DNA of 64,000 nucleotides from a virus: positions 1 to 64,000 of the IMG/VR virus record IMGVR_UViG_3300008120_000241; one strand, written 5' to 3'. Both the position numbers and the translations under genes were made by a program. The notes under the pieces are model-generated. The model ran no database searches. It was given only the letters and a program-made list of their open reading frames with translations, and was not told the origin of the DNA. This document shows, one piece after another, positions 42,097 to 53,486 of this stretch. The first letter of the stretch is position 1. Each line of letters opens with the position of its first letter.

Positions 42097-44316
42097 TTAA
42101 CTTTTTTTCTTTTTTGTTGGTTTTTTTACTTTAACTTCCGTTTTTTTGTCTTTTTCATTATATGATAAAATAAACTTGGAGCCTTTTTCTGGGTTATCGT
42201 TTAAGATTTTATCGGTTACAGCGTCGTCTACCCACTTTTGAATTGTTCTCTTTAATATACGTGCACCAAACCTTGTGTCGGTACCAACGGATATGATGTG
42301 TTTTTTCAAAGTTTCATCAACTTCCAATTCAAATTCAATACCATTAATTCGTTTATATACTTTTTCAAGTTCAAGATCAACAATTTGTAACAAATCACTT
42401 TCATTTAAGTCCTTGAAATAAATAATCTCATCAAAACGGTTAATGAACTCTGGGGCAAACTTTTTAAATAATTCTTTTTCTAGAAGTGATTTTATTTCTT
42501 CTTCCTTTTTTTCTGTTTTGGTACTTGTTGAAAATCCAACACCAGTTCCAAAATCTTGAAGAACTCTAGTCCCAACATTTGAAGTCATTAAAATAATGCA
42601 ATTTTTAAAATTGATTTTTCTTCCGTGTCCGTCAGTTAAAAATCCTTCATCCAACATTTGTAAAAACACATTAAATATTTCCGGATGTGCCTTTTCAATT
42701 TCATCTAACAAAATAACCGAATATGGTTTGTTCTTGATTTTATTTAAGAATGGAGAACCGTCTTCATAACCAACATATCCGGGTGCCGTTCCAGTTAATT
42801 TTGATGTTGCAATTTTATCTGAAAATTCACTCATATCAAGTCGGATAAGTGCGTCCTCACTATTAAACATATGTTTTGCCAATTGTTTTGCCAACTCAGT
42901 TTTACCAACGCCTGAGTTACCAATTAATAATCCACTAAAAATTGGTTTCTTTGGATCATTTAAACCAACCTTGTTTCGCTGGATCGCTCTTGCGATTTTA
43001 CTTACCGCGTCATCCTGTCCAATTACTTTTGTTGATAAGGTTTCCTTCAATGTTTTTAATTGTTCGGTCTCATCTGTTGTTATTTTTGAGATTGGAATTT
43101 TTGTCATTAATGAAACAACGTCATATACCACATCTTCGGTAACTTCTCTTTTAAATAAGTTTCTATTTTTTTCAAACTGAGCTTTTTCTCTTTCCAAATC
43201 AGTTAAAACCTTCCTTTCTTTGTCTCTAAGATTTGCGGCTTCTTCATAACGTTGACTATTAATAACTCTAACCTTTTCTTCTTTAATTTCTTGAGCTTGT
43301 CTTTTTAAATCCTCAATAATTTCTGGTAATTTAATTTCAACTTGCGATCTGGCACCAACCTCATCAATAATATCAAAAGCCTTATCTGGAAATTCTCTGT
43401 CCGTAATATATCGGTCGGCCAACTCAACACAAAGTTTTAAAATGTCCTCAGTATAACTAACTTTGTGGTGATCTTCATATCTTTCTTTTGAGTTTTGAAG
43501 TATTTGTAATGTTTCTTCTTTGGTTGATGGATCAACCATTACTTTTTGGAATCTTCTTTCAAGTGCACCATCCTTTTCAATGTTTTTTCTATATTCCTCC
43601 AAGGTTGTCGCGCCAATACATTGTAATTCACCTCTTGATAAAGCCGGTTTAAATATGTTTGAAGCATCCATTGAACCTGACGCATTTCCTGCACCAATCA
43701 TTGTGTGGATTTCATCAATAAAGATGATGATATCTGGATTATTATAAAGTTCCTCCATAATGACCTTCATCCTTTCTTCAAACTGACCTCTGTATTTTGT
43801 TCCAGCAACAATTGATGTCATATCCAATGAAACAATTCGTTTTCCGGATAAATTTTGAGGACAATCACCTTCAAATATTTTCTTTGCCAGACCTTCAATT
43901 ATGGCAGTTTTACCACAATTGTGAGAAACGACACCATTTGATATGTATTTTCTTTCATTGTCCAATACTTCAAGATCAAATGTATTGTGTACACCAATAT
44001 CTTCTTTTTCAACGACTTCATACATATTATTATCTTCAAAATAAATTAAATCACCAATATTAAGGTTTTTTAAACGAACCCAATACGATTCATTTAAAAC
44101 CTCAACATTTTCATTATTTATTGATGATTCAACCTCAACCAAGTGATCCTCGGAACCAGAAAGTTCGGTACCATTTGAAAGTTTTATTTTATAACAATTT
44201 TTGTTTTGTTTCTTAAATAGGTTACCAACAAGTTTGAAACCAGATGGTGTTTTAATTTTATACGTCCCTCCTTCATTTTCAATTAAATTAAAAAATTCTT
44301 CAATTTTGATTTTCAT
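42097..44316 (-). CDS. clpC: ClpC-like AAA+ ATPase, C-terminal part, preceded by split-intein C fragment (aa 1-133, 44316..43918)
   Basis: ...TFDLEV...VVSHN|CGKTAI; FIDEIH, GATTLEEY, UVR middle domain, GNSGVGKT, LLDEIEKAH, GVGF loop. Confidence 0.9.
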   Translation of the reverse strand: MKIKIEEFFNLIENEGGTYKIKTPSGFKLVGNLFKKQNKNCYKIKLSNGTELSGSEDHLVEVESSINNENVEVLNESYWVRLKNLNIGDLIYFEDNNMYEVVEKEDIGVHNTFDLEVLDNERKYISNGVVSHNCGKTAIIEGLAKKIFEGDCPQNLSGKRIVSLDMTSIVAGTKYRGQFEERMKVIMEELYNNPDIIIFIDEIHTMIGAGNASGSMDASNIFKPALSRGELQCIGATTLEEYRKNIEKDGALERRFQKVMVDPSTKEETLQILQNSKERYEDHHKVSYTEDILKLCVELADRYITDREFPDKAFDIIDEVGARSQVEIKLPEIIEDLKRQAQEIKEEKVRVINSQRYEEAANLRDKERKVLTDLEREKAQFEKNRNLFKREVTEDVVYDVVSLMTKIPISKITTDETEQLKTLKETLSTKVIGQDDAVSKIARAIQRNKVGLNDPKKPIFSGLLIGNSGVGKTELAKQLAKHMFNSEDALIRLDMSEFSDKIATSKLTGTAPGYVGYEDGSPFLNKIKNKPYSVILLDEIEKAHPEIFNVFLQMLDEGFLTDGHGRKINFKNCIILMTSNVGTRVLQDFGTGVGFSTSTKTEKKEEEIKSLLEKELFKKFAPEFINRFDEIIYFKDLNESDLLQIVDLELEKVYKRINGIEFELEVDETLKKHIISVGTDTRFGARILKRTIQKWVDDAVTDKILNDNPEKGSKFILSYNEKDKKTEVKVKKPTKKKKS

Positions 44317-44345
44317 AATATTTTTATAAATTTTTTGTTATGTTA

Positions 44346-44639
44346 TTAGATGGTCTCAATATTATGAGTATTCACATCAGAAACTTTTTCTACTTCAATC
44401 CACGTATCACCTAAAACACATCCAGGTTCACCAAGTATGATTGGATTATTCTTTTTTCTTCTGGATAAAATCTGAGCAATCCTATTAATTTCATCTTCTC
44501 TACCAACAACCGGATCCAACTTACCTTCTTCGGCCAATTTTATTAAGTCTCTTGAAAAGTTATCAAGAACCGGGGTTTTACTTTTGGAATCCGTGTTTTT
44601 ACTTTTGGATTTGTCCATATCATCAAATGACTCAATCAT
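44346..44639 (-). CDS. clpC: ClpC-like ATPase N-terminal part (73 aa) plus 24-aa split-intein N fragment (44420..44349)
   Basis: [31 protein letters not shown]|CVLGDTWI...; TAGTTTTG upstream. Confidence 0.9.
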
Positions 44640-44715
44640 ATCTTATATTTTTTGTTTTTATTTCTTGGATAAGTTTAAAACAAAACTACCAAATAATCAA
44701 TCATATCTTAAATTT

Positions 44716-44868: not shown

Positions 44869-45285
44869 ATGTTATTTAGAAATTTTCACAACTTAAACCG
44901 TCTATTTAGAGACTTTGATGATTTATTTTTTGAAAATCCCACCCTTAAAGGTAAAGAAAAAATCCAAACCGGAATAGATGAAGATGGTGAATGGGAAAAG
45001 AGATCATTTGTATCTGACTCTGGACTATTCTCTTATTCATTCATCACAAGAAAATCAAACAAACCACACAAAACAAATGAAATTGAAAGTTTAAAACTGG
45101 AACTTGAACAATGTGTTGAAAAACAAGATTTTGAAAGGGCGGTTGAATTAAGAGACAAGATTAAACTATTGGAGGAGAATAAGGAAGAACTATCAAAACT
45201 TAATGAAGAACTAGAAGAAGCAATTCAAAAACAAGATTTTGAAAAAGCAATAGAAGTAAGAGATAAAATTAAGAGTTTAAAATAA
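44869..45285 (+). CDS. UvrB/UvrC-motif (UVR) protein, two motifs
   Basis: LEQCVEKQDFERAVELRDKI; LEEAIQKQDFEKAIEVRDKI. Confidence 0.85.
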   Translation: MLFRNFHNLNRLFRDFDDLFFENPTLKGKEKIQTGIDEDGEWEKRSFVSDSGLFSYSFITRKSNKPHKTNEIESLKLELEQCVEKQDFERAVELRDKIKLLEENKEELSKLNEELEEAIQKQDFEKAIEVRDKIKSLK

Positions 45286-50507: not shown

Positions 50508-53486
50508 ATGGCAGAAAATAAATTAACGGTTTGGCAGAGGTTAGGGAAAGTATTTGGTCCGACATCCACATTGGATCAACAATCACCTGTGTTTAAATTT
50601 GATAAGAAACAACTATTAAAAACAACAGATAAAAATGAGTTTGAAAGGGAGAAACTTGAAGCCCAACAAACCATGTATATTGGTAAACAATGGCAGAAGG
50701 TTGAGAGTAATTTATACCAACAAGCGGTGTACTATGAACCAACCAGAATGGCTTCATATTATGATTATGAGGCCATGGAGTACTCAATCCATGGGGACAC
50801 CAAAATTGCCACTCCTGATGGTTTTATGACCATAAAAGAGCTTTCAGACAAGGGTAGAGATTATGAATTTATAACATACGCTTATGACCATAATTTGAAA
50901 AAAGTAGTACCAGCAATCGCCAGAAATGCTCACTATACCAGAGATGAAATGGCTTATAAAATTACGTTTGATGATGGGTCACATATTATCGCAACTTATG
51001 GTCATAGGTTCTTAAAAAGGGATGGTGTTTTTTGTGAGGTTGAAAACCTTAAACCGGGGGATTCAATGATGCCATTTTATAGAAAATCTTTTTACAATAA
51101 TCAAAATTACCATTGGGTTTATACTTGTAATTCAAACGAGGGTCATCATGGTTGGATATCTGAACACAATTTAATTGCGGAGTGGTATTATAAAAGAAAA
51201 ATTAATGAAGACGAAGAAGTTCATCATAAAGATTTCAATGGTAAAAATAACAAACCGGAAAATTTACAAATAATGAATATTTCCGAACATAGAGCTTATC
51301 ATGCGAGATTAAACAACGAAAAATTATGGGCAAACCCCGAATATAGACAAAAAATGTCTGAAGTTGCTAGAAGAACCGGTAAGTATAGTTGGGAAGGGAA
51401 AAGAGCTAAAGAGAATAATCCGGCATATATAAAATTATCATTTGATTTGATTGTTGAAAAAGCAAGAGAACATAGAACGTTAATGGAAACTGCCACCTCA
51501 CTTGGTGTTTCATTTAGAAAAATACAGAATGAACTTAGATTCAATGGGTTTAAAAATTGGTTTGATTTTTTGGATGTTTATGGAATTGATAAAAGTAATA
51601 GTGATACTTACGGTGAAAAAAACAATAACTTCAAAAAAATCGCTTGGGATTTATTAATTGAAATTGCTAGACAAGAAAATAGTATTACAAATACGGCCAA
51701 AAGATTGAATGTAAGTAGAAATAAAATTTTAAAAACAATAAAAGAAGGGGGATTTAATAATTGGATTACATTTTTGGAATCATATGGTATTGAAAAATCA
51801 AAACACCACCACCCAAAAAATGAAGAACCAGTTATTAATCACAAAATAGTATCAATTGAACCATATGGTGTTGTACCAGTTTATGACTTAACTGTGCCGG
51901 GTTATAAGAACTTCGCTACAGATACCATTTTCTCACACAATACACCTGAGATCTCTGCCGCTCTTGATATTTACTCTGAAGAATCCACCACTCCTGACCA
52001 AGACGGACACATTTTAAAAGTCTACTCTGAATCAAAAAGAATTAAACAAGTATTGGTTGATTTGTTTGTAAATAGACTTGATATAAACACCAATTTACCG
52101 ATGTGGACAAGAAACACTTGTAAATTTGGCGACAATTTCACATATTTAAAGTTAGACCCAGAAAAAGGGGTTGTTGGGTGTCAACAATTACCAAATATCC
52201 AAATTGAAAGATTGGAAAAGGGAATGAGATTTCAACCGGACAAATATTCACAAGAAATGGAAAACGATGCTTTGAAATTTGTTGGGAAAGAAAAAAATAT
52301 GGAGTTCAATACGTGGGAAATTGCCCACTTTAGAATACTTGGAGATGACCGAAAATTACCTTATGGGACATCTATGTTGGAGAAGGCTAGACGTATATGG
52401 AAACAGCTCCTTTTATCGGAAGATGCGATGATGATTTACCGGGTATCAAGAGCACCAGAAAGAAGGGTATTTAAAGTATTTGTCGGAAATATGGACGACA
52501 AAGATGTTGATTCATATGTACAGCGTGTAGCAAACAAATTTAAAAGGGATCAGATTGCTGACCCCAAAACTGGAAATGTGGATATGAGATACAATCAATT
52601 GGCCGTAGATCAAGATTACTTTATCCCGGTTAGAGACCCTTCCCAAACCAATCCAATTGAAACATTGCCGGGTGGTACAAACTTAGCCGAAATTGCTGAT
52701 ATTGAATATATCCAAAAGAAACTGGTAACTGCCCTTAGAATACCAAAGGCGTATTTAGGTTTTGAAGAAGCAGTAGGTAATGGACAAAACTTATCTTTAC
52801 TTGATATTAGATTTGCAAGAACAATCAACAAAATTCAAAAATCAATGTTGGCCGAACTTAATAAGATTGCCATTATTCATTTATTTTTATTAGGGTTTGA
52901 AGATGAACTAACAAACTTTACGTTGGGGTTACACAATCCATCAAAACAATCCGAACTTCTTTCATTGGAATTGTGGAAAGAAAAAATTGAATTATACAAA
53001 AATGCGGTAGCTGAAATCGCAAATTCGGTTGCACCAACCTCAGCTTCTTGGGCTAAAAAGAATATTCTAGGTTTCTCAGATGAGGAGATCAGATTGGATT
53101 TACAACAACAACGAATTGAAAGGGCTGTTGCAGCTGAACTTGCTAAAACACCTGAAGTCATTACAAAAACTGGATTGTTTGATAATATTGATCAATTATA
53201 TGGTAAAAAACCAGGTGAACCGGCAGGTGAAGCACCAGAAGGTGGAGAAGAACCTGGAGGAATGCCACCAATGGGTGGAGGATCTGAACTAGGAGGACCA
53301 CCCCCACCACCGGGACCAGAACCAGGAGGTGAAGTAGGAGTAACACCAGAATCAACCAAGAAAAATGATTTAAATTTAATTCTGGAAGATAACTTATATT
53401 ATGGTAAAACCTCTCTTGATTTATCAAAGGGTAGATTAACCATTAATGAAATTGATGACAAATTAAAAGATTTATTGGATAAGTGA
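50508..53486 (+). CDS. Portal protein (T4 gp20-like) with intein
   Basis: YEAMEY|...|TPEISAALD, YGTSMLE.ARR.WKQL.L.EDAM.IYR..RAPERRVF, EDYF-like QDYFIP, IETLPG. Confidence 0.95.
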   Translation: MAENKLTVWQRLGKVFGPTSTLDQQSPVFKFDKKQLLKTTDKNEFEREKLEAQQTMYIGKQWQKVESNLYQQAVYYEPTRMASYYDYEAMEYSIHGDTKIATPDGFMTIKELSDKGRDYEFITYAYDHNLKKVVPAIARNAHYTRDEMAYKITFDDGSHIIATYGHRFLKRDGVFCEVENLKPGDSMMPFYRKSFYNNQNYHWVYTCNSNEGHHGWISEHNLIAEWYYKRKINEDEEVHHKDFNGKNNKPENLQIMNISEHRAYHARLNNEKLWANPEYRQKMSEVARRTGKYSWEGKRAKENNPAYIKLSFDLIVEKAREHRTLMETATSLGVSFRKIQNELRFNGFKNWFDFLDVYGIDKSNSDTYGEKNNNFKKIAWDLLIEIARQENSITNTAKRLNVSRNKILKTIKEGGFNNWITFLESYGIEKSKHHHPKNEEPVINHKIVSIEPYGVVPVYDLTVPGYKNFATDTIFSHNTPEISAALDIYSEESTTPDQDGHILKVYSESKRIKQVLVDLFVNRLDINTNLPMWTRNTCKFGDNFTYLKLDPEKGVVGCQQLPNIQIERLEKGMRFQPDKYSQEMENDALKFVGKEKNMEFNTWEIAHFRILGDDRKLPYGTSMLEKARRIWKQLLLSEDAMMIYRVSRAPERRVFKVFVGNMDDKDVDSYVQRVANKFKRDQIADPKTGNVDMRYNQLAVDQDYFIPVRDPSQTNPIETLPGGTNLAEIADIEYIQKKLVTALRIPKAYLGFEEAVGNGQNLSLLDIRFARTINKIQKSMLAELNKIAIIHLFLLGFEDELTNFTLGLHNPSKQSELLSLELWKEKIELYKNAVAEIANSVAPTSASWAKKNILGFSDEEIRLDLQQQRIERAVAAELAKTPEVITKTGLFDNIDQLYGKKPGEPAGEAPEGGEEPGGMPPMGGGSELGGPPPPPGPEPGGEVGVTPESTKKNDLNLILEDNLYYGKTSLDLSKGRLTINEIDDKLKDLLDK
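50784..51941 (+). mobile_element. 386-aa intein (Ser1...His-Asn/Thr+1) carrying an HNH homing endonuclease
   Basis: SIHGDTKI (block A), ATYGH (B), VHHKDFNGKNNKPENL (HNH), VYDLTV (F), FSHN|T (G). Confidence 0.92.

Follow-up and report, generated by a model that had tools for sequence, protein, structure and literature searches.

A T4-like freshwater phage with a probable naturally and atypically split intein in the Walker A loop of its ClpC-like unfoldase

The 64,000-nt stretch of viral DNA analyzed here (the window; positions 1 to 64,000 of IMG/VR record IMGVR_UViG_3300008120_000241) carries on its minus strand a gene for a Clp ATPase that is divided into two open reading frames (ORFs). The break falls within the Walker A motif of the first AAA module (D1), and the two parts of an intein flank it. 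An earlier reading of the letters alone (the sequence-only reading) had proposed a naturally split intein with a short N-terminal piece (IntN) and a long C-terminal piece (IntC), and the ORF anatomy, the invariant residues and the conservation of the split bear this out. Very probably the element is a genuine class 1 intein of the VidaL type, naturally and atypically split, and it interrupts Walker A of D1 in the ClpC-like unfoldase of a T4-like phage.

ORF1 (44639..44346, minus strand) encodes 97 residues, of which 73 form the N-extein (44421..44639), running from the start of D1 to the first half of Walker A and ending in GEPG. The remaining 24 form IntN (44349..44420), composed of Cys1 (codon 44420..44418), the block A strand and a conserved 12-residue tail. 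The frame is closed by a TAA at 44346..44348, with a second in-frame TAA immediately after it. Beyond an A/T-rich spacer of 29 nt (44317..44345), ORF2 (44316..42097, minus strand) encodes 739 residues and begins MKIKIEEFF. Its first 133 residues are IntC (43918..44316), which starts just before helix alpha1 and contains block B (GSEDH, with S55 and H58), block F (TFDLEV, with D114) and block G, ending in VVSHN (H132 and N133). The C-extein of 606 residues (42100..43917) follows, opening with Cys+1 (codon 43917..43915) in the sequence CGKTAI and comprising the rest of Walker A (CGKT), the rest of D1, the lid, a short middle region, the second AAA module (D2) and the D2-small domain. The predicted spliced protein has 73 + 606 = 679 residues. 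The sequence-only reading had given these ORF boundaries, piece lengths, spacer and product length, and each is exact, base by base. It had also held that no single indel could fuse the two ORFs. The ORF2 frame differs from that of ORF1, with 32 nt between the ORF1 stop and the ORF2 ATG (stop codon counted), and it has its own TAA at spacer positions 6-8, downstream of the ORF1 stop. Stops close both relevant frames, and therefore no single indel can join ORF1 to ORF2. A scan for promoters and terminators around the Clp locus found nothing above shuffled expectation.

The host protein was identified from profile matches on both sides of the break. Residues 11-74 of ORF1 match positions 142-205 of the NCBIfam ClpB profile, and from residue ~131 ORF2 continues at position 214 onward of the ClpA profile. 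The Pfam domains of ORF2 (PF00004, PF17871, PF07724 and PF10431) correspond to two AAA+ modules with a lid and a D2-small domain. Judged from these matches, the exteins together constitute one ClpA/B/C-type double-AAA+ ATPase (class I Hsp100), and the flanks support the earlier assignment of a phage ClpC-like host with an insertion in the D1 Walker A. The Clp N-terminal domain is absent from the window protein, whose N-extein starts at ClpB profile position 142.

Uninterrupted Clp orthologs were found at the syntenic locus of relatives L089 (678 residues) and L077 (680 residues). The N-extein aligns with their residues 1-73 (82% identity with L089, 78% with L077) and the C-extein aligns from residue 74 (88% identity over residues 74-668 of L089, 87% with L077). 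The end of the N-extein and the start of the C-extein are consecutive residues in these two proteins and in those of two further intein-free loci, L097 and L073. Walker A is GEPGAGKT in L097 and GDPGIGKT in L073. In L089 and L077 it is GEPGCGKT, identical to the motif of the predicted spliced product and to the motif that the sequence-only reading expected splicing to restore. The flanking genes that the window has in common with the intein-free loci are those for a protein with UvrB/UvrC (UVR) motifs (not detected in L077 and L073), a KTSC protein, an M42-like peptidase and a 255-residue ORF. At this one orthologous site, therefore, the intein is polymorphic for presence and absence.

The features that a class 1 intein requires were found across the two pieces: nucleophiles at positions 1 and +1, a block B histidine, and a penultimate histidine followed by a terminal asparagine. 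Cys1, S55 and H58 of block B, D114 of block F, H132-N133 and Cys+1 are all invariant in alignments of the related loci. Within IntN, residues C74, D78, I81, E82, E84, K85, S87 and H92 (ORF1 numbering) are invariant in nine loci; the 12-residue tail, to which the last two belong, is conserved as well. The model for the intein C-terminal splicing region, TIGR01443, matches ORF2 residues 112-134 with 16.3 bits against a cut-off of 15.6.

The split was then examined in independent assemblies and in relatives. Contigs of four runs from four studies cover 43900-44700, and none has an indel in 44317-44345. In three runs (X1, X3 and X11) the whole stretch lies on one contig each, and in the fourth (X7) a contig of 44294-44700 crosses the spacer. 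X1 and X3 possibly represent the source sample, and X7 is not marked as a possible source. The X11 contig, from a diverged strain, shows 18 substitutions over 801 nt and no gaps. When viral contigs were scanned with IntC, 17 loci at 62-81% IntC identity were recovered, and wherever the junction is reached a stop closes IntN and a fresh ATG precedes IntC. Spacers vary in length: L002 has 24 nt (in the same frame, with two stops), L013 has 11 nt, and others have ~1.2 kb with a 390-residue ORF. On both sides of the junction the ORFs are intact in every relative examined. Among 5.8 billion proteins searched, at least 120 clusters of ~727-750 residues begin with this IntC, most of them named just 'ClpC' by the Joint Genome Institute (JGI). 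A contiguous Clp form, expected at ~836 residues, was found neither among those clusters nor among the IntC profile matches. The earlier opinion that the split is not a sequencing artifact, which had pointed to 44317-44345 as the place to check, is thus upheld by contigs of four studies that agree across the spacer and by relatives that keep the split; as to split versus contiguous Clp alleles in metagenomes, only the split form was seen (17 loci and at least 120 clusters).

The selective constraint on each part was estimated by comparison with six relatives. The proportion of synonymous differences was 0.5-0.8, which is near saturation, and that of nonsynonymous differences 0.04-0.28. The ratio of nonsynonymous to synonymous substitution rates (dN/dS) was 0.02-0.18 for IntN, 0.06-0.24 for IntC and 0.03-0.24 for the exteins. 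By this measure both intein pieces are kept functional by strong purifying selection, which argues both against a dead remnant and against docking without chemistry.

The fold of IntC was sought by profile and by model. In a profile search against solved structures the best match was VidaL (6vgv, E 1.4e-8), with IntC residue 2 aligned with chain residue 25, followed by gp41-1 and the consensus atypical intein CatC (E 1.6e-4, partial). The AlphaFold2 (AF2) model of IntC has a predicted local distance difference test score (pLDDT) of 94.5, and its best Foldseek match was again 6vgv (E 1.2e-8; query TM-score, TMq, 0.83; root-mean-square deviation, rmsd, 1.8 Å over 132 columns). At E ≤ 0.001 the model matched 58 PDB chains, nearly all of those listed being inteins, with 6vgv first. 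The predicted structure thus places IntC in the HINT fold. A PDB sequence search with IntN alone (27 residues) gave no match, and the N-part of VidaL could therefore not be aligned to this IntN.

Association of the two pieces was investigated by complex prediction. The IntN-IntC pair scored 0.84 against 0.01 for the best control, although its likeness to the solved VidaL and Cat complexes may explain the pass. Among 80 solved complexes 58 attain the mark used, and among 110 mismatched pairs 2 do so; these counts are approximate since the author's own alignments were used. Contact agreement between runs was at least 87% and the pLDDT of the partner at least 69. In the model, all of ORF1 residues 72-97, which include the whole of IntN, touch IntC, and residues 79-85 (TWIEVEK) are paired with its residues 2-5 and 18-22.

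The IntC model also fixes the class of split. The first helix, alpha1, comprises IntC residues 5-15, and IntC residue 2 aligns with the strand that precedes the VidaL helix. As alpha1 lies within IntC, the split is before alpha1, at the S1 position, which is used by VidaL and PolB16; AceL-TerL and GOS-TerL use S2 (PMC13014065). An assignment to the AceL-TerL type (S2) was rejected, given that alpha1 is in IntC and that IntN consists of a strand and a tail. The comparison with AceL-TerL drawn in the sequence-only reading holds for the short IntN and long IntC and fails for closest kinship, which falls to VidaL. VidaL-type C-pieces in other hosts carry a leader of ~8 residues before the helix (MxIxEExE), and IntN here is ~8 residues longer, its extra part seeming to correspond to that leader; because of these two lengths, the break would lie ~8 residues further downstream than that of VidaL, in the same loop.

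The best explanation for these observations is that the Clp ATPase is assembled by protein trans-splicing. Two chains would be made, a 97-residue N-precursor (73 + 24) and a 739-residue C-precursor (133 + 606), and the IntN strand TWIEVEK would dock between IntC residues 2-5 and 18-22, completing the HINT fold. An N-S acyl shift at Cys1 would be followed by attack of Cys+1 on the thioester, after which cyclization of Asn133 would free the intein and an S-N shift would leave a peptide bond. The product would be the 679-residue ATPase with Walker A GEPGCGKT; without splicing, the D1 P-loop would stay broken. We infer this chemistry from the conserved residues. Some points weigh on the other side. 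Association and splicing in the Clp intein family are predictions from sequence and models, and split inteins of known structure, memorized by the predictor, may be what drives the docking result. The conserved 12-residue IntN tail is without a counterpart in the 16-residue VidaL IntN, and docking may differ in detail. Block B has a serine where most inteins have threonine. Lastly, the intein-free orthologs indicate that the lineage can live without the element, and a benefit to the phage is not proven.

The alternatives differ in which part of this scheme they deny. If the intein pieces associated without splicing, the ATPase would be a non-covalent two-chain complex. Fractured phage enzymes that are assembled non-covalently provide a precedent, one described case being a fragmented phage ribonucleotide reductase assembled by mobile-element remnants (PMC3045599), and the fold model supports docking of the pieces while being silent on chemistry. 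However, the break lies within the Walker A loop, where such a complex would retain 157 foreign residues. The residues needed only for splicing (Cys1, the block B histidine, the terminal His-Asn and Cys+1) are invariant in diverged relatives, and dN/dS is far below 1, which docking alone would not demand. This alternative is accordingly rated as unlikely. Still less likely is that the Clp gene is decaying, with a dead intein remnant and two ORFs that no longer yield active ATPase. The intein-free orthologs show another way to have the gene, and the endonuclease gene found at this junction in relatives (described below) is lost in the window and visibly degraded in L007 and L012. Decay is difficult to reconcile with ORFs that are intact in all relatives examined, with strong purifying selection on exteins and intein pieces alike while synonymous sites are near saturation, or with the full-length C-precursor retained in at least 120 clusters.

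That the mini-intein is in truth contiguous, and looks split through sequencing or assembly error or is bridged by programmed frameshifting or read-through, would be favored by the short (29 nt), A-rich spacer, an indel-prone context. Against it stand the stops in both relevant frames, the concordance of independent assemblies of four studies with no indels, spacers that vary among relatives (one in frame with two stops, many with a 1.2-kb gene) and the lack of a contiguous Clp form among the protein-cluster or IntC-profile matches; its probability is close to nil. A further possibility builds on trans-splicing and concerns why the endonuclease-free split has been kept: trans-splicing might gate the unfoldase, with activation dependent on redox state or timing, and the IntN tail, at a split ~8 residues past that of VidaL, might be a distinct docking element. 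Were this so, ATP binding by D1 would be impossible until the 97- and 739-residue chains meet, and the Cys1/Cys+1 chemistry would tie activation to redox state or to the timing of infection. This proposal is a speculative one and is considered improbable, if less so than the three alternatives above.

At the DNA level the element is a mobile 'fractured gene' cassette in its endonuclease-free form; some sister phages have an apparently Vsr-like homing endonuclease gene in the spacer, and others have an empty, intein-free site. An ORF of 382-393 residues lies between IntN and IntC in L006, L008-11, L014-18, L023 and L050, and in most of these loci its 3' end overlaps the start of IntC. The ORF is fragmented in L007, reduced to a 360-nt remnant in L012 and gone in L002-5, L013 and the window, where only the 29-nt spacer lies between the halves. 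The intein pieces of L014 (ORF present) and L002 (ORF absent) are nearly identical, and gain or loss of the ORF is therefore recent. It has ~50 close clusters, and distant relatives carry PF04480 (DUF559) and the JGI name very-short-patch-repair endonucleases. The ORF itself had no Pfam match and no PDB sequence match, and just a weak PHROG match (Holliday junction resolvase, 5e-5). Foldseek with the whole 392-residue AF2 model (pLDDT 88.5) returned only E-values above 0.1. The C-terminal domain of the model (residues 283-392) best matched the catalytic domain of I-Bth0305I (3r3p_B; Z 9.1, rmsd 3.6 Å, 90 residues), a match tied within Z 1 with DUF559-like 3hrl, Vsr 1cw0 and VRR_NUC.

Between the IntN stop and the endonuclease start, relatives carry a conserved TGATATTTAT followed by a small hairpin, in which two of eight pairs show compensatory changes (L006:4785-4835, L008:4766-4814, L014:4784-4834, L015:4789-4832 and L050:1769-1817). 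These agree with the control elements upstream of free-standing endonuclease genes in Dassa 2009 (PMC2677866). The endonuclease would home into alleles like that of the window, and the endonuclease-free state of the window may be either a homing target or a product of endonuclease loss. In two AAA-ATPase relatives (P0268 and P0269) an endonuclease-like sequence (NPFYGKHH...) precedes IntC in the same ORF, which may be an endonuclease-IntC fusion or gene-calling read-through.

The wider distribution of the intein was examined with the IntC profile, which found 193 representatives at E ≤ 0.001. The majority stand as C-pieces at the N termini of unrelated P-loop NTPases (AAA+, PhoH-like, AAA_24-like, clamp-loader-like and RecA/UvsX-like), and in nearly every case the C-piece is directly followed by [CST]GK[ST], or by SGGK[ST] in the RecA/UvsX-like ones. 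On these alignments, the Clp D1 site is one home of a P-loop-targeting lineage of atypically split inteins. The sequence-only reading had called short-IntN inteins rare; the Clp element, as one member of a large metagenomic family, is not. Contiguous relatives occur in other P-loop ATPases: P0251 has, after GLPG, a segment that is close to this IntN, tail included, and that runs uninterrupted into an IntC-like part. A contiguous mini-intein 27% identical to this IntC occurs in the P-loop of a DnaB-like helicase in L019-L022 (e.g. L020:6001-6369; ILAG/CVHPDT...SSHN/TGVGKS, slashes marking the splice sites).

Other Clp genes are divided differently. The D2 Walker A of the window (GNSGVGKT, 42898..42921, minus strand) is uninterrupted, but some relatives have a second split intein there: in P0013, P0022 and P0058 (503 residues) the IntC-bearing ORF ends after GSTGVGK with a second short IntN (CISGDTEIIV..., ~31 residues), and Clp would then be made from three genes with two atypically split inteins. 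In L102 (2141-2935 and 2956-5160), the D1 P-loop of another phage Clp is interrupted one position later by a split intein of a different sort (GEPGVGK/CICSDTNIV...), with an IntN of ~31 residues that includes the helix and resembles the AceL-TerL-like S2 type. L023 (993-5220) encodes a full-length ClpC with the Clp N-domain (a 251-residue N-precursor), the same D1 split intein and a 382-residue endonuclease gene, and therefore the element is not limited to the Clp lineage that lacks the N-domain. In P0229 (761 residues) the Clp C-precursor opens with a leader of 20 residues (MIDTKVNSNHVTHN...) similar to the window IntN in its tail; this lineage may have an earlier break, with an IntN of just ~12 residues.

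The window comes from a 76.8-kb IMG/VR virus record with an estimated completeness of 26%. A T4-type portal (gp20) and a major capsid protein of the gp23 type are encoded there, relatives of the Clp locus are found on contigs of up to 281 kb, and most runs containing the stretch are metagenomes of lake water and other fresh water. These findings place the element in a large T4-like phage of fresh water. No ClpP gene was found in the record, a result that at ~26% completeness is uninformative on the ClpP of the phage. Divergent from the Clp gene is a gene (44869-45285, plus strand) for a 138-residue protein with two UVR motifs (PF02151, 1.2e-19). Most of the related loci checked have it in synteny, L077, L073 and L023 being those where it was not detected, and it may be a partner or adaptor of Clp. 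The 992-residue portal gp20 (50508-53486, plus strand) itself has a contiguous intein with an HNH endonuclease domain at ~residues 107-478, as indicated by PF14890 (6.6e-15), PF13392 and several PHROG HNH matches.

The Clp split intein is real and well supported and has potential as a tool, while its kind and mechanism are well understood and will not surprise a specialist, and it is common in metagenomes. Both naturally, atypically split inteins (PMC13014065, PMC10189870, PMC11766414) and fractured genes (PMC2677866) were already known. In a library of open-access papers no account of a ClpA/B/C/X ATPase with an intein came up, the one Clp match being a chloroplast ClpP intein. Natural split inteins with a short IntN are sought for protein semisynthesis and live-cell protein editing, and few have been characterized (AceL-TerL, GOS-TerL, VidaL and PolB16). 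In the Clp family, many natural and diverged versions of a Cys-dependent S1 pair would be available, with a synthesizable 24-residue IntN, an unusual conserved IntN tail and the natural extein context G/CGK. The family would also take fractured genes beyond the enzymes of DNA metabolism, to a motor of protein quality control in large phages. Within one syntenic set of loci, the empty site, the intein with its endonuclease, the degraded endonuclease and the split kept after endonuclease loss display the states of a homing cycle.

Fractured genes are phage genes cut by a split intein, with a free-standing endonuclease between the halves (Dassa, London, Stoddard, Schueler-Furman and Pietrokovski 2009, PMC2677866). 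The endonucleases are often Vsr-like with a hairpin upstream, and loci without an endonuclease were also noted (PMC2677866). The arrangement in the relatives of the Clp locus is the same, while the window itself is without the endonuclease gene. The hosts in that study are DNA-metabolism and packaging enzymes, its split inteins are mostly canonical (long N, short C), and Clp does not occur in its text (0 occurrences).

Among atypically split inteins, PolB16 OarG has a 15-residue IntN and is naturally split, S1 and metagenomic (PMC10189870). It shares the S1 split and metagenomic origin with the Clp intein but differs in being Cys-independent (Ser1/Ser+1), in its PolB host and in its block B usage, and it was absent from the matches of the IntC profile search against solved structures. 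The AceL-TerL, GOS-TerL and Cat-TerL inteins have IntN pieces of 25-37 residues (PMC11766414, PMC13014065). This group is likewise naturally split and of phage or metagenomic origin, with a similarly short IntN (25 residues) and with Cys1 and Cys+1 in AceL-TerL; its split, however, follows alpha1 (S2) and its host is terminase, whereas the Clp intein has alpha1 in IntC. The 24-residue IntN is not record-short, because pieces of 15-16 residues are already characterized (PolB16, VidaL). VidaL, as described in PMC13014065 (citing Neugebauer 2017 and Burton 2020), is atypically split at S1 with a 16-residue IntN and has been solved (PDB 6vgv/6vgw). It differs from the Clp intein in the length of IntN (16 against 24 residues), in sequence (22% identity with the Clp IntC model) and in host, which here is a Clp/Hsp100 ATPase. 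It is nevertheless the best sequence and structural match to the Clp IntC, both being Cys-dependent class 1 inteins with a short IntN, a long IntC and alpha1 in IntC, and the end of the VidaL crystal construct (...SHASGK) suggests that a P-loop GK follows there too.

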